DNA of 41,728 bases from a virus (taxonomy: Duplodnaviria > Caudoviricetes): IMG/VR virus record IMGVR_UViG_3300015050_001115, positions 1 to 41,728 of that record; one strand, 5' to 3'. Position numbers and translations under genes: made by a program. Positions 8,605-40,704 of the stretch are shown here, one piece after another. Below the pieces are notes generated by a model. The model saw only the letters and a program-made list of their open reading frames with translations, was not told where the DNA came from and ran no database searches. The stretch's first letter is position 1, and each line of letters opens with the position of its first letter.

Positions 8605-11036
8605 CCGTTGTCGTAGAGAACCCATTCAGCATCTTCCTGGACCTAAAGGGTGCGGGGATTAACGCCGGAACGCTTTATATCGGCGTCGAAAACCAGGATC
8701 CGCAGACCAATCCGCAAGCGGTCTATTGGAATGAAGAACTGACCGTCCCAGCGTCTCAGCCGCTAGATGTGCTGGGCGGTTATATCATGCGGCTGGGCAC
8801 GCCCGCGCGGGCGTATGTCGCCAACAACTACTCCATGCGGCTGCGTAATCGCCAAGGGGATCAAGTCTTTTACGTGCCAACGGTCGGGGTGCTGGGAACG
8901 GTCTTGCTGTCGATTGTCAGCTTGGCAGATGCCGAAGCCACCACCGTCGCACCTGACGTCCAAGCCATTCAGCTTCTTGGCTACTATGCAGCCGGTGACG
9001 GCGGCGGCGCACTCTATGTCCGCTCAAACTCACCGCCGGCGCAGGGCGGCTTTGTTTCAGCCGATGGCGCAAATTGGGCCATAGCCGAAGAAGAGCCGAT
9101 CGTTCAGATGTTCGGCGCGGTCGGCGACGGCGCGTCGGACGACACGGTCGCGATCCAGGACACAATTGATTATGTGTTTGCCCGAGGCGGCGGCAAGGTC
9201 ACATTTCCGGCCGGCCGCTATCGGATCGCCACGGCTCAGGGCAGCGTCACACTGCCCTACGACAACGGATCCCTGACGGCAGCCGCAGCGCCCTATGGCC
9301 CGGCACTGGCCTCTGAAGTGCCTGACGTGATGCCTTATGCTTTGAATCTCCGTCAGGGCGTTCGCCTGGTCGGAGACAATCGTCTGGGGTCGACGCTGGT
9401 CGGGGCTTGGGTGTTCGGCGTGAGCCCGATCAGCCTTGCTCAGGTCATCGGCATAGTGTCCGGCGCCGCCCAAGATGAGAACACGGTTGACGTGTCCCTA
9501 GAATTCTTGAGGTTTGAGAATTTCCTTATCCCCTGGCTCGTAAAAGGGGTCCTTGTCCAGAGCTTCCTCTCCCACGTGAACTTCCAAAATTGCGGGTTCG
9601 CGACGATGATCCAGACGGCAGAACGAGTAACTTACGATTCAGTTCGGATCGTCGACTGCGGCGCTGGGCCCGTTCACGGCGGTTGGTGGAATTGGCGCGA
9701 AAACACCTATACGGCTGCCAACATTCCCAACGCCTTCGGCCACGGCTGGACCGACAAGACCCGTACAAAAGACATCGACTTTAGCAACTCAAGGACCCGA
9801 TCGGCCGTCGATGACAATCTCGACGCCTTCCTTGATCAGTATTTCTTCAAGACTGCTAACAGCACCACTGGGACCGGCTACACTTCTGCCCCCGCTGTGG
9901 GCTTTTCCGGCGGCGGCGGTGCTGGGGCCGCTGCTACCACCGTGGTCGACTTGGGGACCGGCCGCGTTGTCGGGGTCACGATTACCAGCCCAGGAGCCGG
10001 CTATACCACGGCGCCGCTCGTTGCCTTCACGGGCGGCGGCGGATCTGGCGCGGTCGGTGTTGCGATCATCAGCGGCGGGGCTGTTGTAGGGGTCGCGCTG
10101 AGCCGCGCGACCTGCCCAATCCCCGGCGATGCTCAAAGCGGGTTCATCAATCGCGCAATGTATCGAGGCGTAACTGGCGTCGCCGTCACCTTCCACGCGC
10201 GCTATGGGCGCCCGAACTTTACAAACTCCCATCGCGATTGGTTCGTCTTCGGCGCATACCGTATGGCCTATAACGGTGGTTCTCCGTACTATAATCTCTG
10301 CGAAGAATTTTACGTCGAGCGCGTCGGGTTCTTCGATCCCATGAACTTTGGTCCCACCAAGATAATGGGGGTCGACTATGTTGATCCTTACCTCAAGACC
10401 CGGCCGCCCGCGGCGATCTTCGGAGTGGCGGGGAACTTCAATAAAAACGTTTGTACCTATTTCGATCCGTGCGCCTTTTTGACCCCGATTAACACCGGCG
10501 GCCAAAGCTGGGAGCAGCTGCAATACAACGCGGCCTATGTTACCTCGGCCCAGGTTTCGAACTCGTTCATGCGTGCAGACTACAGACTGTCGAATGTTGA
10601 TAATGCAGATCCATCGACGTTTGACCACTACCTGGAAAGCGCCAACCTTCTCGATGCGAGCACTAACCTGACTGTAGAAGGAACATCGAGCCCCGGCGCT
10701 TGCACCTATACCCTGCGCCGTCTCCAATCGACCCGGTTTGGCAACCTCGTCCACTTCAACGCCCGCATCGCGTATACGGGCCACACGGGCGTCGGAGGGA
10801 TCAAGATTCGGGGCTTGCCGTTCTCCCTCAGTCCAGGCGGCGGGGGGAGCCAACAGCTTCAATTCTATGGCGGTTCGGGGGTTGTCAGTACTGGGGTTAT
10901 CATAGCTATCGCGGATAATGCGGACGACGCGGTCGTTGTCCGTCAATATGACCCTGCTGGCGCCGTATCAAACGTTGCGCTCCCCGCGGATGCCGAGCTG
11001 TATCTGAGCGGAACCTACATCACGGATGCGCCCTAG
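8601..11036 (+). CDS. Tailspike: P22-type head-binding domain, pectate-lyase-like beta-helix and C-terminal domain
   Basis: N-terminal NPFSIF..G.LYIG..NQDPQTNP..VYW (P22 gp9 head-binding-like); FGAVGDGASDDTVAIQ..GGGKVTFPAGRY beta-helix cap; more AT-rich codons. Confidence 0.88.
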   Translation: MTVVVENPFSIFLDLKGAGINAGTLYIGVENQDPQTNPQAVYWNEELTVPASQPLDVLGGYIMRLGTPARAYVANNYSMRLRNRQGDQVFYVPTVGVLGTVLLSIVSLADAEATTVAPDVQAIQLLGYYAAGDGGGALYVRSNSPPAQGGFVSADGANWAIAEEEPIVQMFGAVGDGASDDTVAIQDTIDYVFARGGGKVTFPAGRYRIATAQGSVTLPYDNGSLTAAAAPYGPALASEVPDVMPYALNLRQGVRLVGDNRLGSTLVGAWVFGVSPISLAQVIGIVSGAAQDENTVDVSLEFLRFENFLIPWLVKGVLVQSFLSHVNFQNCGFATMIQTAERVTYDSVRIVDCGAGPVHGGWWNWRENTYTAANIPNAFGHGWTDKTRTKDIDFSNSRTRSAVDDNLDAFLDQYFFKTANSTTGTGYTSAPAVGFSGGGGAGAAATTVVDLGTGRVVGVTITSPGAGYTTAPLVAFTGGGGSGAVGVAIISGGAVVGVALSRATCPIPGDAQSGFINRAMYRGVTGVAVTFHARYGRPNFTNSHRDWFVFGAYRMAYNGGSPYYNLCEEFYVERVGFFDPMNFGPTKIMGVDYVDPYLKTRPPAAIFGVAGNFNKNVCTYFDPCAFLTPINTGGQSWEQLQYNAAYVTSAQVSNSFMRADYRLSNVDNADPSTFDHYLESANLLDASTNLTVEGTSSPGACTYTLRRLQSTRFGNLVHFNARIAYTGHTGVGGIKIRGLPFSLSPGGGGSQQLQFYGGSGVVSTGVIIAIADNADDAVVVRQYDPAGAVSNVALPADAELYLSGTYITDAP

Positions 11037-11063
11037 ACGGCTCGCCGGGGTAGCGTCTATAGT
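11034..11063 (+). promoter_or_regulatory. Possible sigma70-type promoter ahead of a short non-coding transcript
   Basis: TAGACG-N18-TATAGT overlapping the tailspike stop codon. Confidence 0.4.
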
Positions 11064-11108
11064 CACCTGGCCAGGCGACATAAATCCCCGCCGGCGAGAT
11101 CCTGCGGG

Positions 11109-11144
11109 ACGGCCCAGAGCTTCGGTTCTGGGCCGTTTCGCGTT
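11109..11144. terminator. Intrinsic terminator between convergent late and early operons
   Basis: ACGGCCCAGAGC-TTCG-GTTCTGGGCCGT hairpin with a cUUCGg loop, followed by TTCGCGTT. Confidence 0.8.
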
Positions 11145-11585
11145 CTAGGGCCTGGCGCGAGACTTGAGCGGGCGGCTCGGGATCTTCTGCGGCGTGTCGC
11201 GCTTCTCGAAGCCCCGGCCCTTCAGCGGCCGGCCGTTCTTGACCTTGGCCTTCGCTTTCGGCTTGGGCTCCGGTAGCCGCGCCAGCACGTCAGGTGCGAT
11301 CACGAGGTGTCCGCTCTCGATCAGCCATCGCATCGTTGCGCGGTGCGCGGCTTCCCACATGGCCGTTCGGATCTCGATGGGCGCGGACCCTTGGTCGACG
11401 TGCATGTGACAGTCGTGGCAGATGAAGGCGATAGCGGCGTCGCTAGCCTTCAGGCTCATGCCCTTGCCGTCCCGGCCTTGGTTGCTGTGAGCGCTGACCA
11501 CCTGGCCGACGTTGGGCGCACGACAGCCCATGCAGCACGGCGCGAGCTGCGCCAGAGACAGCAGCGCGGGGAAGCGGAAGGTCAT
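11145..11585 (-). CDS. DUF1364/YbcO-like zinc-binding putative nuclease
   Basis: CxxC...VVSAHSNQ..GKGMSLKASD...CHDCH..VDQG pattern. Confidence 0.75.
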   Translation of the reverse strand: MTFRFPALLSLAQLAPCCMGCRAPNVGQVVSAHSNQGRDGKGMSLKASDAAIAFICHDCHMHVDQGSAPIEIRTAMWEAAHRATMRWLIESGHLVIAPDVLARLPEPKPKAKAKVKNGRPLKGRGFEKRDTPQKIPSRPLKSRARP

Positions 11586-11613
11586 CGCGCCACCACTTCA
11601 CGGGGGTTTGTGC

Positions 11614-11826
11614 TCATGGCTGATTTCCAGCAAGAAGGGCGCGGCCTGCGGGGGTCTGCCGATAGGTGTTGTTGGCGGGGCCATACTCTGCGAGACCAGC
11701 GGTCACCAAGCCGCCTAAGTGGCCCAGCAGCATCGTCACGCCCGTCCGATCCCGCACCTCGTATGGGGCTGACCAGTCTGGGATAGCCGCGAGGATTGTC
11801 GCTTCCGCTTCGGTCAGCTTGGTCAT
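11614..11826 (-). CDS. Small winged-helix-like hypothetical protein
   Basis: 70 aa; KLTEAEATIL...LVTAGLAE...YRQTPAGRALL; GGAGAG RBS. Confidence 0.65.
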   Translation of the reverse strand: MTKLTEAEATILAAIPDWSAPYEVRDRTGVTMLLGHLGGLVTAGLAEYGPANNTYRQTPAGRALLAGNQP

Positions 11827-12065
11827 GACTTCTCTCCGGGGTGGGGAAGGGCGGCTCTTGCCGCATCAATGCGCTTGATCAGCTTGGCCAGCCGAGGCAC
11901 GAGCTTCCGCGTCTTGCGGCGGATGCGCTGGTGGAGGCTTTTGAACCTGATCAAGCGGACGCGGATCGTCGCTTCGTCGGTAGGAACCCACCGCGAAATC
12001 TCTTCCTCGCGGGCGCGGACGCGCTCTCCCGCACTAGAAGTCGTGTCTATCCGGGCGCCGCTCAA
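11823..12065 (-). CDS. Basic hypothetical protein
   Basis: TTG start overlaps the tnpB stop and its stop overlaps the next ATG; start uncertain. Confidence 0.45.
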   Translation of the reverse strand: MSGARIDTTSSAGERVRAREEEISRWVPTDEATIRVRLIRFKSLHQRIRRKTRKLVPRLAKLIKRIDAARAALPHPGEKS

Positions 12066-13138
12066 GCTGCGGCCCTCCGGCTTCCCTCAACAGGAGCCGC
12101 GACACTGCGGCCGATCCTGAGAATGTTCCGGGCCGCGTTCACGTCGCGGTCGTGGCTTTCGCCACAGGCGGAGCATTCCCAGGTCCTTATTCCAAGCCCT
12201 GCGATACCTCTCGGCCGCTCCGGCGGCAGCGAGCCGCACGAAGAACAGGTTTGGGTCGTGAATCTCTCGTCAACCAGCACATAGAACGCCGCCTTATAAG
12301 CGAGCATCGCGCGCAAGGTTGACCACCCGGCGTCGAGGACGGATTTCGCCATCCTCGTCTTGGCCAGGCCCTTGGGTTTCACGTTCCCGACCGCGATGAA
12401 CGCGTGTTCGCGGGCGAGACGTGTAGAAAGCTTGTGGTGGAAGTCGCGGCGGACGTTGCCGATCTTGGCATGGATCGCGCGGACGCGGCGCTTGTTGCCA
12501 GCGCGCTGGGCGACGGCCAAGCGCTCGGCGTACTGCCGAAGATGGCGCGGGTTCTCGACCACATCACCGTTACTAAGCGTGGCGAGCGCCTTCAGGCCGA
12601 GGTCAATGCCGATATCGCTGGATGCGGCTTGGCCGGATTGTTCGACCTCGACATTGAAGACCACCCACCAACGGCCGCGCGCGTCTTCCACGAACGCGCC
12701 AGCCTTGGTGATTTCGGGCAAGGGGCGGCGCTTCGTGCCGAAGAAGCGGAAGGTCTGGCCGCGATAGGTGATGCTGTTGCCGTCGATGCGTCGCGACGTC
12801 CGCTTGAACGGAATCCAGCCAAGGGATCGCTTTTGGCCGTAGCTGGCGCGAAACCTCGGACAGCGCTTGTATTGGTCACGAGACCGGACGAACTGGTCGC
12901 ACACCCCGGCAGCGGTGTCTTGAAGGATGCCCAGCATGGCTCCGACCCCATTACACTCCTTGCCGAGGTCATAGTTGGTCGGCCACTTGCGACGCCGCGC
13001 GCCGCCCTTGAACCGGGCTTCGGCGTCGCGGTGCTGCGCCACGCACCAATTCCAGACCGCGTTGCACGCCTTGGCCTGAGCGGCCAGGTGCTTGGCGGCG
13101 CGTCGGTCCTTGATCCGGTATTTGTAGGTCTTGTTCAT
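12062..13138 (-). CDS. tnpB: TnpB RNA-guided endonuclease (IS200/IS605 family, stand-alone, rearranged RuvC-II)
   Basis: N-terminal TYKYRIKD..L...A..CNAVWN; RuvC-I GIDLGLK; RuvC-II position IAVGNV; VDERFTTQTCSSCG..WECSACG zinc finger; RuvC-III DRDVNAARNI. Confidence 0.95.
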   Translation of the reverse strand: MNKTYKYRIKDRRAAKHLAAQAKACNAVWNWCVAQHRDAEARFKGGARRRKWPTNYDLGKECNGVGAMLGILQDTAAGVCDQFVRSRDQYKRCPRFRASYGQKRSLGWIPFKRTSRRIDGNSITYRGQTFRFFGTKRRPLPEITKAGAFVEDARGRWWVVFNVEVEQSGQAASSDIGIDLGLKALATLSNGDVVENPRHLRQYAERLAVAQRAGNKRRVRAIHAKIGNVRRDFHHKLSTRLAREHAFIAVGNVKPKGLAKTRMAKSVLDAGWSTLRAMLAYKAAFYVLVDERFTTQTCSSCGSLPPERPRGIAGLGIRTWECSACGESHDRDVNAARNILRIGRSVAAPVEGSRRAAA

Positions 13139-13968
13139 GACCCCACCCCCTCGCTCGCCCCTTGAGCCGACCGACCTTTGGAAAGCTCATAGGCCTGTCG
13201 CGCGGGGTTGCTCGACAGGTGCGCGGCTTTGAACATTCCGCGCGTGAGGTAAAGCGGCTTATGGAGGCCAGTGACCTCGACCATTACGGTGTCGTCGGGC
13301 AGGTCTCGGGCGAACAGCCATTCGCCAATGCTCGCAAACGGACCGAGGGCGGCCAGCATCGCATCGTCGGGCAACGGCGGATAGGCTTCCGCAGGTGGCG
13401 CGGACGCGGGCCGATTGGCTGGGTCGGCTGCATAGGCCTTCATGCGCTCGGCCGTCGCTAGGCCCATCTGGCAGTGTTCGGGGTCGCCGCCAGCGGCTAG
13501 GCGGCGCTCGCCCCAAGCCCGCGTCAGGTTGTGCGCGTCCGGGTCCCGGCCCAACAGAATGAACCACGGCTCGCCCGGCCGACGCTTGGCCAGACAGTCG
13601 TGGTTGCCTGCATCTTCCCCCTCAGAGACGACAGCCTCTTGGGAGGGTGGACCAAGGAACAGCGGGACGACGCGGGGCTTTGGGTCCGCGCATTGGCTTC
13701 GATAATTCTCGACCATTGCGAGCGTCTTGAAGGTCGTGGACGCATTGACGCCCAACGCTTCGGAAAACACCAAGGTCCACGCCACCGGAGCCTCTTCCCC
13801 CGCCTTCTCGGGTTGAGGGGCGGCGGCGATCATGGCGCGGTAGACGTTCAGGGCCTCAAGGTGCGTCCCGTCCGCGAACGACGCTTGTCCGGCGCGAAGC
13901 ATCGCCTCGTCTGGCTTGGCGGGAACCAGCACCCAAGCGGTATCGGTGGAGGCGTGATGGGTGGTCAT
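13135..13968 (-). CDS. Mosaic early protein (Ea22/Eaa-like)
   Basis: WVLVPAKPDEAML..YRAMIAAAP and EAPVAW motifs typical of lambdoid Ea-type proteins; HDCLAK..PGEPWFILLGRDP module; start at MTTHH. Confidence 0.65.
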   Translation of the reverse strand: MTTHHASTDTAWVLVPAKPDEAMLRAGQASFADGTHLEALNVYRAMIAAAPQPEKAGEEAPVAWTLVFSEALGVNASTTFKTLAMVENYRSQCADPKPRVVPLFLGPPSQEAVVSEGEDAGNHDCLAKRRPGEPWFILLGRDPDAHNLTRAWGERRLAAGGDPEHCQMGLATAERMKAYAADPANRPASAPPAEAYPPLPDDAMLAALGPFASIGEWLFARDLPDDTVMVEVTGLHKPLYLTRGMFKAAHLSSNPARQAYELSKGRSAQGASEGVGS

Positions 13969-14333
13969 TGGATCTTCCCCGCCTTGATGTTGGCAACGAG
14001 GGCCTCGGCCGTAACCAGCGCAGCCTGCGGACCAACCACGTTGTGAAGCATCTTGAGCGCCCGGCCCGCGACGCGACCCAGGTTGACCCCCGCCGCCACG
14101 CCGCCGGGACCGCTGACTATGAGGGCGGTGATTGCTTCGTCGATCTGATCGACGGTTAGGTCTCGCGTCTCCCCGGCGGTGTTGGTGGGGCCTTCTGCGC
14201 GGCAAAGGTCCATGATTTGGTTCAGCACACCCAGCGGGTTCGCGAAGTGGCGGAAGGCGGGCAACACGTCGGTAATCCCGACCTTCGCCTTAAGGAAGAT
14301 CGCCCGGTTCGCCTCTGACAGTTGCTCACCCAT
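13965..14333 (-). CDS. Hypothetical protein
   Basis: AGGAAGGGAG RBS before MGEQLSE; stop overlaps the next start. Confidence 0.6.
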   Translation of the reverse strand: MGEQLSEANRAIFLKAKVGITDVLPAFRHFANPLGVLNQIMDLCRAEGPTNTAGETRDLTVDQIDEAITALIVSGPGGVAAGVNLGRVAGRALKMLHNVVGPQAALVTAEALVANIKAGKIQ

Positions 14334-15192
14334 GGTCGGGGCTCCCTTCCTGGTGGGGTGTGGCGCCGATAGGGATCGGCCGGGCGTCGTGGAACCGGCC
14401 GTCGAGGTCCCGCGTGCCGCCGCCCTTGTTCTGCTTGTGCTGATAGGGCACGCCAGCCGCCGCGCACTGGTCACGGACAGCCTGAAACGCACCATCGGGA
14501 GTGTCGCGGGCCTTGTGTGCGCCCTGGTCTGTCTCGCCGCCCGTAATGGCCCAGAAGCGCGGGCCCAAGGCCAGCAGGTCTGCGGGGACCACGACGCGCT
14601 CGAGCAGGGGCTCGCCCGACCAGAACAGGAACGCTGGGTTCAGCGCGTGATAGGCCGCGAGCGCGTGCCGACCATCGCGGTCCATTTCCGCTTGCGTCAC
14701 CGCGGTGAAGCCGATGGCGGCGTTCGCCGGCCAGCAGTACGAAAGAGACCCGTGCTCGTCGCTGGTCATCCGTAGCACCTCGGCAAACGCCTTGACGATC
14801 ATCCCCGGCCGCTTGGTCAGCATCAGGAAGGTCAGGCTCTCGCACTCGCGGATCAGGTCGAAGAGATCGCACCGCCATTGCGGATCAACCTGATTGTCAA
14901 ACACGTCCGCGAGTGACGCGCAGAAGACGAAGCGCGCGGGCGCAGCTGGATTGATCGCCAAGGCGACTCGTTGCTCGCGGTTCCACTTGCGGACCTTCGA
15001 CCAGTTGCCCGGCGCGGTGCGGACGCGGGTTCCCTTCTCGCCGGGCTGGCCCCAGACGACACGGGCAAAGCGCCCCTTCTCGCCCATGAGCGCTTCGGCA
15101 TAGCAGCCGTCGCAGGCGGGGCTGACCTTCGTGCAACCGATCCACGGATTGAACGTGTCGTTGGCCCAGGTGATGTTCGTGTTCTCCGCCAT
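14326..15192 (-). CDS. DUF5131 / phage Gp37-Gp68 family protein (radical-SAM-like)
   Basis: MAENTNITW..TFNPWIGCTKVSPACDGCYAE; VFCASLADVFD; LTKRP; SGEPLL; ITGGE. Confidence 0.92.
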   Translation of the reverse strand: MAENTNITWANDTFNPWIGCTKVSPACDGCYAEALMGEKGRFARVVWGQPGEKGTRVRTAPGNWSKVRKWNREQRVALAINPAAPARFVFCASLADVFDNQVDPQWRCDLFDLIRECESLTFLMLTKRPGMIVKAFAEVLRMTSDEHGSLSYCWPANAAIGFTAVTQAEMDRDGRHALAAYHALNPAFLFWSGEPLLERVVVPADLLALGPRFWAITGGETDQGAHKARDTPDGAFQAVRDQCAAAGVPYQHKQNKGGGTRDLDGRFHDARPIPIGATPHQEGSPDHG

Positions 15193-16040
15193 CAGGCGTA
15201 TCCCTTTTCTCTGAGCCACTCGACCATAGCCGGGTCTTGCGGCGAAATGCTGCGGCCAGAGCCGGCTGGCGTCCGGCGCTTCATGCCGTGGCGTAGGAAG
15301 CCGATGGTCTTGTCTCGCGCGGCTGGCGCCCAGCAGAGACCGCAGCTCGCGCAGGCTTCCGGCGCCAGCTTCTGGGCGGGGCACATGATCACGGCCGGGT
15401 CGTCGCTGTCGGCGTCCAGGACGATCGAGCTTTGCGGCGCAGTATCTGGCCGGCTGAACCGGATCGCGAACTGGTCCCATGCTTGGCCGGTCAGCCAGCG
15501 AATGCCCTTGGCGATGCGCCGGGACTCGGCGTCGTCGGCATCTTCGCGCCTGGCCGTGAAGCCGAACACATGCAGCGCCGGCAGCTGGTCCAGCATGTCG
15601 GCCCAGAACTGCAGATATGCGACGCTGTAGAAGTCGCCCAGGGTGTGCAGGCGGACCATGAAGCCACGCGGGTTCTCAGCGGCCAGGGCCGTCAATTCCG
15701 CCTTCAGGAGCGCGAGGAACGGCGCGTCATGCCGATGCCGGCGGGCCATGTGCATCGCGTTTCCGTAACACCCTGACCACTGCGCGCAGGATCGCGGACA
15801 CGTCGCGCGTTCCTCGAGCGTCAGGTGGAAGATCGGCCAGCCGCGGCGCTCGCCCTTCGTGACGGCCTTCCCGAGCTTGGGGTTGTTGTGGCCGGAGACC
15901 AAGAGGCGCGGGCTGGCGAAACTGCCCACCACGGTCGACGGGAAGATCGTTCGACCCTCCCGAAGCGCCGGATTGTCGGGAGACAGCTGCTGCAGCGCGG
16001 ATGGGTCCACGGCCTTGTTCTTGAACCGGGCGAGGCTCAC
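15192..16040 (-). CDS. GP88-like Cys-motif protein (radical-SAM-related)
   Basis: NPKLGK...LTLEERATCPRSC....GCY; VRLHTLGDFY; C-terminal CPAQ...CASCGLCW. Confidence 0.7.
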   Translation of the reverse strand: MSLARFKNKAVDPSALQQLSPDNPALREGRTIFPSTVVGSFASPRLLVSGHNNPKLGKAVTKGERRGWPIFHLTLEERATCPRSCAQWSGCYGNAMHMARRHRHDAPFLALLKAELTALAAENPRGFMVRLHTLGDFYSVAYLQFWADMLDQLPALHVFGFTARREDADDAESRRIAKGIRWLTGQAWDQFAIRFSRPDTAPQSSIVLDADSDDPAVIMCPAQKLAPEACASCGLCWAPAARDKTIGFLRHGMKRRTPAGSGRSISPQDPAMVEWLREKGYA

Positions 16041-22941: not shown

Positions 22942-23476
22942 TTTAGCCACCTCTACAGGGTGGTGCGCGGGATCCGGCGGGGAGACACCCGATCTCGGCT
23001 CCATCCGCATGCCCGACACGAAAGAAGAGGTCGGGCCCTTCCTCGACTTCTTCTACAAATGGTTCGCGACCAAGCTGGACGAATACCAGCCCAAGGTCGT
23101 CACCTTCGAGGCGCCGTTCCTTCCCAAGGCCAGGATCGACGAGCACGGGCACCTGAAGCAGGCGCCGACGTCCATGGCCGTCACGCGCAAGCTGCAGGGC
23201 CTGGCCGGCGTCTGTGAGATGGTCTGTTTCCAGAAGGGAATCGACGTCTATGAAGTGAACCTGGGCAGCGTGAAGTCGGCCATGGGCGGCCAGCGCGGCG
23301 CCGGCAAGCCTGACATCATGGCCGCGGCGAAACGCTGCGGCATGGATCCGAAGAACTTCGACGAGGCGGACGCCTTCGGGGTCTGGATCGTCACGGTGCG
23401 CCACTACGCCAAGCAGTACCAGCACATCTGGGATCAACGGCTCTATGGCGGCCGCCCGGGGAACCTGGCGCTATGA
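22925..23476 (+). CDS. RuvC-like Holliday junction resolvase
   Basis: LDLATSTGWC; VVTFEAP; VKSAMGG...K.DI; DEADAFGV. Confidence 0.8.
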   Translation: MLFSLDLATSTGWCAGSGGETPDLGSIRMPDTKEEVGPFLDFFYKWFATKLDEYQPKVVTFEAPFLPKARIDEHGHLKQAPTSMAVTRKLQGLAGVCEMVCFQKGIDVYEVNLGSVKSAMGGQRGAGKPDIMAAAKRCGMDPKNFDEADAFGVWIVTVRHYAKQYQHIWDQRLYGGRPGNLAL

Positions 23477-24954
23477 AGGCGGTTCACATCCACCACGGCG
23501 ACAGCAGGGAGGTCCTTCGGGGCCTCCCTGACAACTCAATCGACAGCGTCGTGACCGATCCACCCTACGCGCTCGTCTCCATTGTGAAGCGGTTCGGCGG
23601 GGCCAACGCTGCCGAAGCCAAGAGCGAAGGCGCGAGCGGCGTCTACAAGCGCGCCTCCGCAGGGTTCATGGGCAAGACCTGGGACACCGGCGAAACCGCC
23701 TTTGCTCCGGAGTTCTGGGCTGAGGTCATGCGGGTCTTGAAGCCGGGCGGGCATGTCGTCGCGGCCAGCGGAACGCGGACCTATCACCGCCTTGCCTGCG
23801 CCATTGAGGACGCGGGCTTTGAAGTCCGCGACATGATCTCCTGGCTGTATGGCAGTGGCTTTCCCAAGTCGCACGACGTCAGCAAAGGGATCGACAAGGC
23901 CCGGAACGACAAGCCCGAAATCCTCGCGATCACGTCCGCCATGCGTGACGCGGCAGAAGCGGCCGGGATCTCTCGATCGATGGTCGATGCCTTCATGGGC
24001 ACGGCCGACATGGGCGGCTGGTGGCTTTCGCGCTTGCTGCACCGCTGCGCTTGCCCGACTTGGGACCAGTGGCTGAAGCTGAAAAGCTACCTGACCATGG
24101 GCGACGCTCTCGACGCCGAGGTTTGGCGTCTGAACGGCCGCAAGGGCACGCCCGGCGAGGCATGGCTCGATCGAGAAGTCACTGGCGCGGTCGAGGAATG
24201 GGCCGACAGGGCGAATTACGCGCTGACGTCAGCCGACGGGCTGCGCCGCGACAAGCCTGCGAGCGAAGCCGCCATCGCCTGGGCTGGATGGGGCACCGCC
24301 CTTAAGCCCGCCTGCGAGCCCTGGGTCCTCGCCCGCAAACCGCTGAACGGCACGGTCGCAAGCAATGTGCTGGCGCATGGCACGGGCGCGCTCAACATCG
24401 CTGCATGTAGGATTTCTACTGACGAAAGTGTCAATGCTCAGGGCCGCTGGCCCGCCAACGTCATCCATGATGGCAGCGATGAGGTGGTCGAGGCGTTTCC
24501 GGCTGAAGCTGGCGCAGCGGCGCCAGTGCGCGGAACTGAAGCCAGCCGCGCCAGCAATGGCAACGTCACCGGAGAGCGCAACCGTGTTCCCGGCACCTTC
24601 CATGCCGACAAGGGCTCGGCCGCACGGTTCTTCTACAGCGCCAAGGCCGACGCAGACGACCGCATGGGGTCAAAGCATCCGACCGTGAAGCCCATCGACC
24701 TGATGCGCTATCTGGTGCGGCTGATAACCCCGCCCGGCGGCGTCGTCCTAGACCCGTTCGCCGGAAGTGGCTCGACCGGCGTCGCCGCGATGCTGGAGGG
24801 GTTCGAGTCCATCCTGATTGAGCGGGAGGCCGAGTATGTGGCCGACATCAACCGCAAGGTCGCCTTCTACCGGGGCGAGGGCCGTCTGGCGTCGCAGGAG
24901 AAGCTGAAGGCCAAGCAGGACGACCACAGCGACCTTCCCCTGTTCGGGAAGTAA
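23473..24954 (+). CDS. DNA N6-adenine/N4-cytosine methyltransferase (beta class)
   Basis: VVTDPPY catalytic motif; GSGFPKS; HPTVKP; VLDPFAGSGSTG SAM-binding motif. Confidence 0.93.
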   Translation: MKAVHIHHGDSREVLRGLPDNSIDSVVTDPPYALVSIVKRFGGANAAEAKSEGASGVYKRASAGFMGKTWDTGETAFAPEFWAEVMRVLKPGGHVVAASGTRTYHRLACAIEDAGFEVRDMISWLYGSGFPKSHDVSKGIDKARNDKPEILAITSAMRDAAEAAGISRSMVDAFMGTADMGGWWLSRLLHRCACPTWDQWLKLKSYLTMGDALDAEVWRLNGRKGTPGEAWLDREVTGAVEEWADRANYALTSADGLRRDKPASEAAIAWAGWGTALKPACEPWVLARKPLNGTVASNVLAHGTGALNIAACRISTDESVNAQGRWPANVIHDGSDEVVEAFPAEAGAAAPVRGTEASRASNGNVTGERNRVPGTFHADKGSAARFFYSAKADADDRMGSKHPTVKPIDLMRYLVRLITPPGGVVLDPFAGSGSTGVAAMLEGFESILIEREAEYVADINRKVAFYRGEGRLASQEKLKAKQDDHSDLPLFGK

Positions 24955-29636: not shown

Positions 29637-29827
29637 GCGAGGGCCACAAGACGCGCGAGGAAGCGATAGAGCAGGCCCTGCGCGATGCCTTGGCGCTGGG
29701 CGAGGCCTGCTCTATCATCGCCTGCGTGGGGCCCCCGGCGTGCCTCCGCATAGAACCATCAAACGCTGAGAGTGAGGCCTGTACTATGTGCGAACGCACG
29801 ACGATCCACGCCCGAGGTGCGGCGTGA
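29633..29827 (+). CDS. Small Cys-containing hypothetical protein
   Basis: MSEGHKTREE..., C..C/CxxC; coupled. Confidence 0.5.
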   Translation: MSEGHKTREEAIEQALRDALALGEACSIIACVGPPACLRIEPSNAESEACTMCERTTIHARGAA

Positions 29828-30033
29828 TGGAAGATCCGCGCATCGTCGTGGTCTCGACGCCGAAGCCCGCAGAGCCCACCCGCAAGGACATCAAGGTCGG
29901 AACGCGGTTTCGCGATGCCTCTGGCCGCCGGATGATCGTCGAGAAGGTGAACGACGACGAGACGGTCCAGGCGCGCTGCTTGGACAACCGCAAGCAGCGG
30001 CGAGCGCGGGCGGCCAAGAAGCGGAAGGGCTGA
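29827..30033 (+). CDS. Small beta-rich hypothetical protein
   Basis: IKVGTRFRDASGRRMIVEKV...VQARC (DUF2158-like small barrel); GAGG RBS. Confidence 0.55.
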   Translation: MEDPRIVVVSTPKPAEPTRKDIKVGTRFRDASGRRMIVEKVNDDETVQARCLDNRKQRRARAAKKRKG

Positions 30034-30035
30034 GC

Positions 30036-30458
30036 ATGACGACAATCGCTTATCGCGATGGCGTCTTGGCGGCAGACACGCTGACGACCAACAACGGCGG
30101 CGCAGTCGGCTATGGCGGCTGGAAGATCGGCGGCAAGAACGGCGTCTTGTGGTCAACCGCAGGCGACTCGGCCTGGGGGAAGATCTTTCGCGACTGGATG
30201 TCCACCGGACAGCGCGGCGACATCGATAAGCCGGACGAAGTGACCGCCGGTCTCGTTTACACGCCCTGCGGCCTGATCTTGGTCTATCACTCGAGCGGCA
30301 TCGAGGTCCGCCGCGGATTGCCTTTCTGGGCGGACGGCAGCGGCCAGGATTACGCCCTTGGCGCCATGCAGGTAGGAGCATCGCCCGAGCAGGCTGTTCG
30401 CGCCGCGATGGTCTGGGATCTCCACACCGGCGGTGATGTCGTCACGGTGCGCCGCTGA
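30036..30458 (+). CDS. Ntn-hydrolase, proteasome beta/HslV-like peptidase
   Basis: M-TTIAYRDGVLAAD; K; AGD; WADGSGQDYALGAM..GASPEQAV..A..D.HTGG. Confidence 0.78.
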   Translation: MTTIAYRDGVLAADTLTTNNGGAVGYGGWKIGGKNGVLWSTAGDSAWGKIFRDWMSTGQRGDIDKPDEVTAGLVYTPCGLILVYHSSGIEVRRGLPFWADGSGQDYALGAMQVGASPEQAVRAAMVWDLHTGGDVVTVRR

Positions 30459-39667: not shown

Positions 39668-40150
39668 ATGGTGCGCAACAGGACTGGCGCGAGAACCCCG
39701 GTCCCCGGCGCCCTGGACCGCCTCGCGGACCAGATCGCAGGCTTCCGAGACGAGATGCGCGCCGACCTGGGCCGCCTTCATGATCGTGTTGACCAGGTAG
39801 ACGCCCGGGTCGATCAGACCTCCCGCGCCGCATCAGAGGATCTCCTGCGTGAGGTCTCTCACCTCAATGCCCGCGTTGAACGCTTCTCCGAAGCCGCAGC
39901 GCGCGGGATGGAGCAGGTTCGCCAAGAGCTGAAGGATCACGAGAAAGCGACGACCGCCGACGTGACGCGAGCAGCGGTTCAAGGGGTCCTTTCGTCCAAG
40001 GCGGTGCTATTCCGGCCAAATCGTTTGCAATTCGCGACGCTTTTGACCATGGTGGCAATATTCCTGATGACGTTCATCGAAAAGGCCCCGCCGATTTTCC
40101 GCGCAGTGGGCATGTTTTTCGAGGGGGTCAAAAAACTGGACGCTGACTGA
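39668..40150 (+). CDS. Coiled-coil protein with C-terminal TM helix
   Basis: GGAGG RBS before ATG 39668 (alternative start 39593); heptad-like region followed by FATLLTMVAIFLMTFI. Confidence 0.6.
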   Translation: MVRNRTGARTPVPGALDRLADQIAGFRDEMRADLGRLHDRVDQVDARVDQTSRAASEDLLREVSHLNARVERFSEAAARGMEQVRQELKDHEKATTADVTRAAVQGVLSSKAVLFRPNRLQFATLLTMVAIFLMTFIEKAPPIFRAVGMFFEGVKKLDAD

Positions 40151-40704
40151 TGCGACTTTTCGCTCTAGTGGCTTTCCTGATTTTTCCGGCCATCGCCGCG
40201 GCGCAGCCCGCAGCTCGAATGATGCCGGATGGCCTGCGCACCATGGCGCCGGCCGGGTGGTCATCCTATTGCGCAAGCGATCCCGACGCCTGCGCCCCGG
40301 TCTCCACTGACCGTTGGCGCCCAGACGCTGCCATGAAGCGCCTCAACGCCGTCCAGACCTCCGTCAACGCCCGGGTTAGCGCGGCGAGCGACCTGGACAA
40401 CTACGCCGTACCCGAACTCTGGATTCTTCCCGACCGATCGGGCGACTGCGAGGATTATGCCCTCGCCAAGCGCAAGGCCCTGCTGGACGCTGGATGGCCG
40501 CCGGAGGATGTCCGCCTGGCCGTGGCGACCACGGAGCAAGGCGAGCGCCACGCAGTGCTCACTGTCGACACCGACGGCGGAACCTACGTTCTGGACAACC
40601 GCCACCCGTTTGTTGAGCCATGGCAGGCGCTGCCCTATCGCTGGGAGAAGCGCCAAGCGCGCGACGGCTCGGGCTGGGTTGAGGTCTCGCCCCCCGCGCA
40701 ATAG
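40150..40704 (+). CDS. Periplasmic transglutaminase-like cysteine peptidase (BTLCP/LapG family)
   Basis: Signal peptide ending AAA|Q; VN......SD...Y...ELW..P...GDCEDYALAKR; HAVLTV; VLDNR. Confidence 0.92.
   Translation: MRLFALVAFLIFPAIAAAQPAARMMPDGLRTMAPAGWSSYCASDPDACAPVSTDRWRPDAAMKRLNAVQTSVNARVSAASDLDNYAVPELWILPDRSGDCEDYALAKRKALLDAGWPPEDVRLAVATTEQGERHAVLTVDTDGGTYVLDNRHPFVEPWQALPYRWEKRQARDGSGWVEVSPPAQ

Follow-up and report, generated by a model that had tools for sequence, protein, structure and literature searches.

The 41,728-nucleotide stretch analysed here (the window) is the complete record of a P22-like podophage with direct terminal repeats. At 12062 to 13138 on its minus strand it carries a tnpB gene of 358 codons that is packed tightly into a putative operon, and the question is how this gene came to be there and what its product does. 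The original prediction described it as a stand-alone, pro-Fanzor-type TnpB coupled to the phage early genes, possibly domesticated, with no room for a left IS end, and acting either in homing or against host or competitor DNA. The two overlaps on which the idea of coupling was based, ATGA at 13135-13138 and TTGA at 12062-12065, are both in the sequence, and genes for a RecT-like protein and exonuclease VIII lie 5' of tnpB on the same strand, so that coupling to early genes remains the probable arrangement.

The catalytic site and family of the phage TnpB

The reading frame and its RuvC motifs are present as first described: the protein has a rearranged RuvC domain and a C4 zinc finger, matches two TnpB Pfam families, and its translation reads GIDLG (D179), IAVGNV (G251), VDERFTTQTC (E291), and DRDVNAA (D332). 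The canonical RuvC-II glutamate of ISDra2 TnpB aligned in sequence with G251, and D179, G251, E291, and D332 were invariant in 108 of 108 aligned close homologues, bearing out the proposed swap of Gly for Glu with a relocated Glu; Gly replaced the RuvC-II Glu in all 185 sequences used to build a protein tree as well. The predicted structure (pLDDT 86.6) placed E291 in the loop following strand 285-289, and its fold matched Fanzor2 9b0l (Z 24.1, rmsd 3.4, 334 residues aligned) and ISDra2 TnpB 8h1j (Z 24.0, rmsd 3.4, 318 aligned) in a tie. Rearrangement of RuvC-II arose in several clades (PMC10691335; PMC10530073), and TvTnpB, a rearranged-site TnpB, cleaves DNA (Jiang 2023, PMC10530073). We concluded that the TnpB of this phage is a real rearranged-site protein that is probably active as a nuclease, and the activity originally supposed for such enzymes is, by analogy with TvTnpB, probable here too.

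Pro-Fanzors are defined by a DPG motif and an alternative Glu in company with an IS607 TnpA (Yoon 2023, PMC10711439), and a pro-Fanzor standing close to the ancestor of the eukaryotic Fanzors would share with the window TnpB the alternative Glu, which lies before the zinc finger at the spacing of that criterion (about six residues from E291 to the first Cys, C298); Fanzor2 9b0l, moreover, was the tied best structural match. However, the RuvC-I motif is DLG rather than DPG, here and in 184 of 185 relatives in the tree set, an IS607 serine-recombinase TnpA was found neither in the genome nor among 94 of the 127 neighbouring ORFs of 22 close loci, and by sequence ISDra2 TnpB (E 2.5e-28) far outscored Fanzor2 (E 1.3e-11). 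We give this ancestry almost no credence, and with DLG in place of DPG and no IS607 TnpA the pro-Fanzor label has to be withdrawn. On its sequence the protein is probably a member of a very large rearranged-site group, RIIr-5/TnpB2-like, that published descriptions match: RIIr-5 (Altae-Tran 2023, PMC10691335), TnpB2/TvTnpB (Jiang 2023, PMC10530073), and the separate clade with alternative Glu and D-hydrophobic-G that was set apart from pro-Fanzors (Yoon 2023, PMC10711439) resemble it in Gly at RuvC-II, a Glu shortly before the zinc finger, DRDxN, a length of about 350 residues, and a right-end omegaRNA with a pseudoknot. Unlike theirs, its element has IS1595-type inverted repeats as ends, not IS605 hairpins or IS607 ends, and unlike TvTnpB (PMC10530073) it is not accompanied by an IS605 TnpA.

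The family is common, 6434 of 7999 scored candidates passing E 1e-40, and the window TnpB is a singleton at 90% identity. Among named homologues the nearest, at 74% identity, belongs to Caulobacter sp. BE264 and not to a cyanobacterium, and the phage host is probably an alphaproteobacterium. A cyanophage is reported to carry tnpB (bioRxiv 10.64898/2026.02.14.705889), and in Thermus phages tnpB genes have been described next to CRISPR-like arrays (PMC11437467). In two related Ralstonia phages, Hyacinthe and Raharianne (L014, L017), tnpB genes that are apparently different occupy one and the same place in the gene order, one adjoining a Y1 transposase gene and the other without it.

The right end, the guide-RNA scaffold, and the IS1595-type element

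The gene is not stand-alone: a transposon right end with a guide-RNA scaffold, missed in the original reading, lies at about 12112-12042 on the minus strand. Among 19 aligned sequences conservation stopped at the base equal to 12042, and the guide therefore begins at 12041. The scaffold has four helices, including one pseudoknot: a hairpin at 12095 to 12112 (helices 1 and 2), whose loop at 12105-12101 makes the pseudoknot with the strand 12047-12043; a short hairpin at 12085 to 12094 (helix 3); and a terminal stem at 12051 to 12080 (helix 4), in which 12080-12077 pair with 12054-12051 across the tnpB stop codon. All 342 of 342 cells were paired in the 19 sequences and 57 had changed on both sides, a score that 0 of 500 shuffles equalled, slid controls giving 35-42%, with the proviso that the pairing scheme was derived from the same sequences, which favours it. 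Helices 1 and 2 were paired in 19 of 19 sequences, with two-sided changes in 7 of 11 pairs, and all 18 scaffold pairs are kept in the window copy. At the locus Rfam gave no match, and single-strand folding did not exceed shuffles (z −0.72). A right-end scaffold with a pseudoknot and a variable guide, as in TnpB/omegaRNA systems, is present.

The tip of this end (12042 to 12054, minus strand) was identified as an IS1595-type terminal repeat by the limit of conservation and by its match, at 10 of the first 13 bases, to the ends of four IS1595 transposase elements; it deviates from the family at the two bases following CCGG. The 3' end common to the closest relatives is unlike the canonical IS605 hairpin, and in several relatives it recurs as an inverted repeat some 35 bases ahead of the start codon. 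When viral contigs were scanned for the repeat, the matches listed (at least 150 loci, with flanks for 80) included at least 46 two-ended phage elements, at least 35 of them flanked by a perfect 8-bp duplication. Of 47 ORFs scanned in these listed elements, three were IS1595 transposases (PF12762 plus PF12760), and others encoded methyltransferases, Mom, NADAR, and MazG-like proteins. Loci L225-L353 make up a large phage family of IS1595-type cassettes with single passengers, namely DNA methyltransferases, Mom, NADAR, MazG-like proteins, and many unknown small ORFs.

Two-ended copies with tnpB were found as well (L019, with an 8-bp duplication, and L187, L207, L190, L224, L195, and L448), and one complete phage, G006, has an IS1595 transposase element with a duplication, three tnpB matches, and eight two-ended, guide-only mini-elements with ends of this kind. 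These mini-elements, of 235-256 bases (G006:C1:13769-32252 and 95814-102258; L503-L505, L397, L460, L466-L468, and L481-L483), have an omegaRNA-like scaffold and a TTGACA hexamer without tnpB, and each would supply the TnpB of that phage with a different guide in trans. Four same-orientation right ends without left ends lie within a 3-kb span of the same genome (G006:C1:16846, 18707, 19208, and 19672), 3' of a tnpB, and might serve as a guide array of irregular spacing.

In a tree of 185 proteins every one of the 21 with an IS1595-type end fell in a clade of 61 tips (support low for the whole clade, 0.25, and 0.98 for its core), and none of 101 canonical-end proteins did; rearranged-site nucleases that are compact and have a short predicted TAM are thus available from this clade in large number. 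One-ended copies were interspersed with two-ended ones (L211 next to L203, for instance), and G006 has eight ends without a partner, all with the right-end tip and one of them at the end of the record. Left-end loss therefore recurs. In a census of 95 two-ended elements, full-length tnpB copies kept the duplication in 1 of 8 cases versus 67 of 87 for other elements (p 5e-4). Flank swapping between copies was considered as a cause of missing duplications and was set aside, as the fetched parts of G006, G007, G008, and G012 held no partner flanks. One further one-ended tnpB copy, L046, is flanked by a 9-base repeat (657-665 and 1770-1778) that looks like a kept target duplication, with about 5 bases remaining between the repeat and the tnpB start codon.

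In the window itself no left end was found anywhere, as expected from the lack of room noted originally, the 8-bp target duplication is absent at the locus, and no DDE (IS1595) transposase gene is present; in G006 this transposase is supplied in trans. The statement that the complete genome lacks TnpA and serine recombinase also held, Y1 TnpA, serine recombinase, and IS1595 transposase all being absent. The copy resembles IS1595-family ISs and their passenger-only derivatives in the terminal repeat that it has in common with PF12762 plus PF12760 elements and in the 8-bp duplications of its relatives; it differs from them in having one end, no duplication, and no transposase, and in an end that doubles as guide scaffold and has a CG-type tip. 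An IS607-like dinucleotide crossover had also been entertained and was dropped after the 8-bp duplications and IS1595 transposases appeared.

An ordinary non-autonomous insertion of the IS200/IS605 (IS1341) type, mobilised by Y1 TnpA, would have been the conventional explanation; distant rearranged-site relatives do have canonical hairpin ends (101 in the tree), and a relative at 44% identity adjoins a Y1 transposase gene in a phage. Against this stand the IS1595-type right end and the inverted repeats of close relatives, one with an 8-bp duplication, and the IS200/IS605 signature of subterminal hairpins without inverted repeats or duplication is seen neither in the window element nor in these relatives. 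The end sequence largely refutes an origin by Y1 TnpA, and we consider it very improbable. Solo tnpB genes between inverted repeats are already known: in DDE-1 to DDE-6 (Altae-Tran 2023, PMC10691335) tnpB likewise lies inside inverted repeats and solo tnpB is mobilised in trans, and the main text of that paper names IS630, unlike the IS1595-type ends here. IS1595 is named once in its supplement, in a profile list, and its Additional Files 10-11 may include IS1595 cases. A 2026 review (PMC13565253) lists ISL2, IS630, and IS1031 as TnpB partners, with IS1595 not mentioned in the part of its text available to us, and describes the TnpB-DDE partnership as poorly explained. A search of titles and the openings of abstracts, in a literature set made up of non-subscription papers, gave no paper on an IS1595-TnpB element or on insertion behind start codons. 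The locus is a clean case of a TnpB that changes its transposase partner and then drops transposition altogether.

Probable insertion behind a phage start codon

The overlap on the downstream side had been taken as a sign of domestication, and this interpretation fails, since the TTG and the first eight codons of the 80-residue downstream ORF are element right end. The remaining 72 codons (11823 to 12041, minus strand) are the native body of an interrupted small phage gene. When 1.84 billion representatives were searched exhaustively with HMMER, these residues had two free homologues, P0127 of 74 aa (E 1.1e-10) and P0128 of 77 aa (E 6.4e-9), and the other two non-self matches to the ORF were weak, multi-stretch alignments in long proteins; two word-index searches found no homologues of the downstream ORF, exhaustive HMMER alone retrieving them. 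Met1 of P0127 maps to codon 8 of the 80-residue ORF and that of P0128 to codon 7, and the native start was therefore at the junction, within one codon, in a reconstruction of the empty site that draws on these two homologues, one codon apart and with starts predicted by a gene caller.

On the other side of the element the upstream phage gene (13135 to 13968, minus strand; 277 aa) ends in an SD-like sequence and a stop codon overlapping the tnpB start, and two of four homologues, read by eye, end in a similar SD-like sequence and overlapped start. The ATG that now starts tnpB (13136 to 13138, minus strand) would originally have started the interrupted gene and, at an element-free site, would serve as the predicted TAM. 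Joining this ATG to base 12041 restores the gene and, because base 12041 is an A, keeps the upstream stop codon. We infer from the sequence that the element inserted right behind the phage ATG and that its duplication and left end were lost via deletion between two ATGA stretches.

Alignment of related phages had been expected to give both element boundaries and an empty site; it gave the right boundary, at 12042, and not the empty site. Database searches found no element-free sibling phage, the 16-mer of the guide had no match in 510 fetched loci, cultured-phage searches with P0127 and with the downstream frame of L018 gave no matches, and single-protein searches with the tnpB locus gave no match in viral contigs and distant matches only in genome contigs.

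The interrupted gene has a likely replacement start in an outward TTG (12063 to 12065, minus strand), which lies 24 bases inside the right end, in frame, immediately preceded by a purine-rich SD-like stretch; relatives have ATG at this place. Among 24 distinct guide-bearing right ends, 21 had a start-like triplet at −24 or −45, 18 of these being ATG; in the control, a start-like triplet was present at −24 in 117 of 158 ordinary ends too, with ATG in only 16. Six of 30 downstream frames matched PHROGs, three in frame with the right end and three not, and rescue of the start is therefore not general; it fits, as judged from sequence, the window copy and some others. The tight operon packing of a phage tnpB can be an inbuilt property of the element and is no proof of domestication. 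At L021:4892-5308 a right end directly precedes a collagen-like tail gene, in frame.

The predicted target and a likely role in homing

The predicted guide (12022 to 12041, minus strand), set by the scaffold boundary, consists of the interrupted phage gene from codon 2 onward; known TnpB guides suggest a length of 16-20 nt, which was assumed here. For its first 12 nt the next best matches in the window carry two mismatches. A guide that corresponds to codons 2-7 of a phage gene speaks against host or competitor DNA as the target, as had been considered originally.

A census of 95 two-ended elements suggested the TAM. In guide-bearing elements the base two positions beyond the duplication position, on the left side, was a T in 15 of 15 cases, as compared with 91 of 158 ordinary ends (p 5e-4), with the near-duplicate L445 dropped, 8 of the 15 elements coming from one genome, and two-ended copies L098, L100, L203, and L215 left out by the filters (on inspection by eye L098 carries the T, unlike L100). 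An A stood one base further out in 11 of the 15, and the mirror base on the right side was found in 6 of 15 (p 0.28). These frequencies suggest a TAM of (A)TN, which ATG satisfies. All 24 guide-bearing right ends had C at −2, a base that the right-end search patterns demanded and that the pseudoknot also constrains, and 115 of 158 other ends finished in ATG and would therefore offer such a TAM to their own guide. Sparing of the occupied site by C at −2 is suggestive only. The losses of duplication and left end could be due to selection against seed matches at the left junction; L019, however, has persisted despite a self-match of 14 bases there, so this is no firm explanation.

Homing against siblings that lack tnpB, one of the roles proposed originally, is the role best supported. 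We consider it likely, though well short of certain, that this tnpB-only, IS1595-type right-end element, lacking a left end and placed behind an inferred phage start codon, encodes an RNA-guided nuclease that homes into element-free siblings. In the sequence of events that we propose, an IS1595 transposase acting in trans would have inserted a two-ended element of 1.1 kb, as relatives suggest. A short deletion from the phage ATG to the tnpB ATG would then have taken away the duplication together with the left end, some 35 bases long, giving tnpB the phage ribosome-binding site at the cost of transposition. The in-frame TTG of the right end, coupled to the tnpB stop, would let the interrupted gene be translated with 7-8 extra residues, and the right end, if expressed, would fold as omegaRNA, as its covariation indicates, with the start of the interrupted gene as guide. 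TnpB is predicted to need (A)TN 5' of its target, so that the element-free allele, which has ATG, would be cut and the occupied copy, in which the right-end tip with C at −2 takes the place of the TAM, would escape; donor-templated repair by the RecET-like proteins of the phage would copy the element. T4 SegB and SegF (PMC13565253) are likewise lone nuclease genes in a phage operon, and the window TnpB is predicted to spread like them by recombination in mixed infection; unlike these free-standing homing endonucleases it would be RNA-guided, transposon-derived, and directed by its right flank. The proposal makes sharp predictions on the TAM, on there being a single target, and on the immunity of a site once occupied, and the element family makes non-restorative phage homing testable.

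With the same origin, the element might now be a passive relic that is retained because it does no harm in the operon and provides the next gene with its start, and that homes rarely or never. Its lost left end, the two bases after CCGG at which its repeat differs from the family, the TTG start where relatives have ATG, and its singleton protein would fit decay; the intact ORF and catalytic set and the 18 kept scaffold pairs do not, and neither does a dN/dS of 0.17, even if this long-branch average may predate left-end loss. We think this unlikely, yet a possibility to be taken seriously.

Domestication as a nuclease that the phage turns to its own benefit against host or competitor DNA would agree with tight coupling on both sides, purifying selection, a genome free of transposases, and the lack of a left end in five of the six context-known copies in the subclade of the window tnpB. 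The dN/dS that was to indicate selection was indeed purifying, 0.17 to the nearest copy (an average over a long branch, possibly predating left-end loss); two-ended pairs, however, gave a similar range, 0.09-0.41. The phage with the nearest tnpB copy (78%) has only 2 of 50 other window ORFs in common and carries tnpB at a different position, on the opposite side of a shared HNH-like gene. This gene (window 11145-11585 versus L018:3174-3584, 61%) is 3' of tnpB here and 5' there. Neighbours differed among 22 close loci, guides were not conserved among relatives, the guide here corresponds to a downstream gene of the phage itself, and some relatives have two ends and occur in several copies; conserved neighbours with a conserved guide or target across orthologues, which would mark domestication, were thus not observed. 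The possible domestication first suggested is accordingly improbable, and we favour the homing nuclease: judging by its sequence, tnpB is immobilised and probably expressed with the early genes, and nothing points to a conserved target.

More tentatively, and as something we would not expect to hold in full, a whole phage lineage may be shifting from cut-and-paste passengers to RNA-guided homing endonucleases: with a TAM that a start codon satisfies, insertions after an ATG would home, tnpB would capture a ribosome-binding site by shedding the left end, the right end would give back a start, and the CG tip would protect the occupied site. If true, the strategy would amount to insertion that heals itself at the level of DNA, a counterpart of introns and inteins.

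The minus strand of 10900-14300 showed no sigma-70 promoter-like site, and none of 55 window ORFs scanned matched an integrase. Elsewhere the window encodes a transglutaminase-like cysteine protease (BTLCP) and an HslV-family peptidase (40150-40704 and 29772-30458), and, at 14326-16040 and 23473-24954, DUF5131, Gp88-like, and N6/N4 DNA methyltransferase genes.
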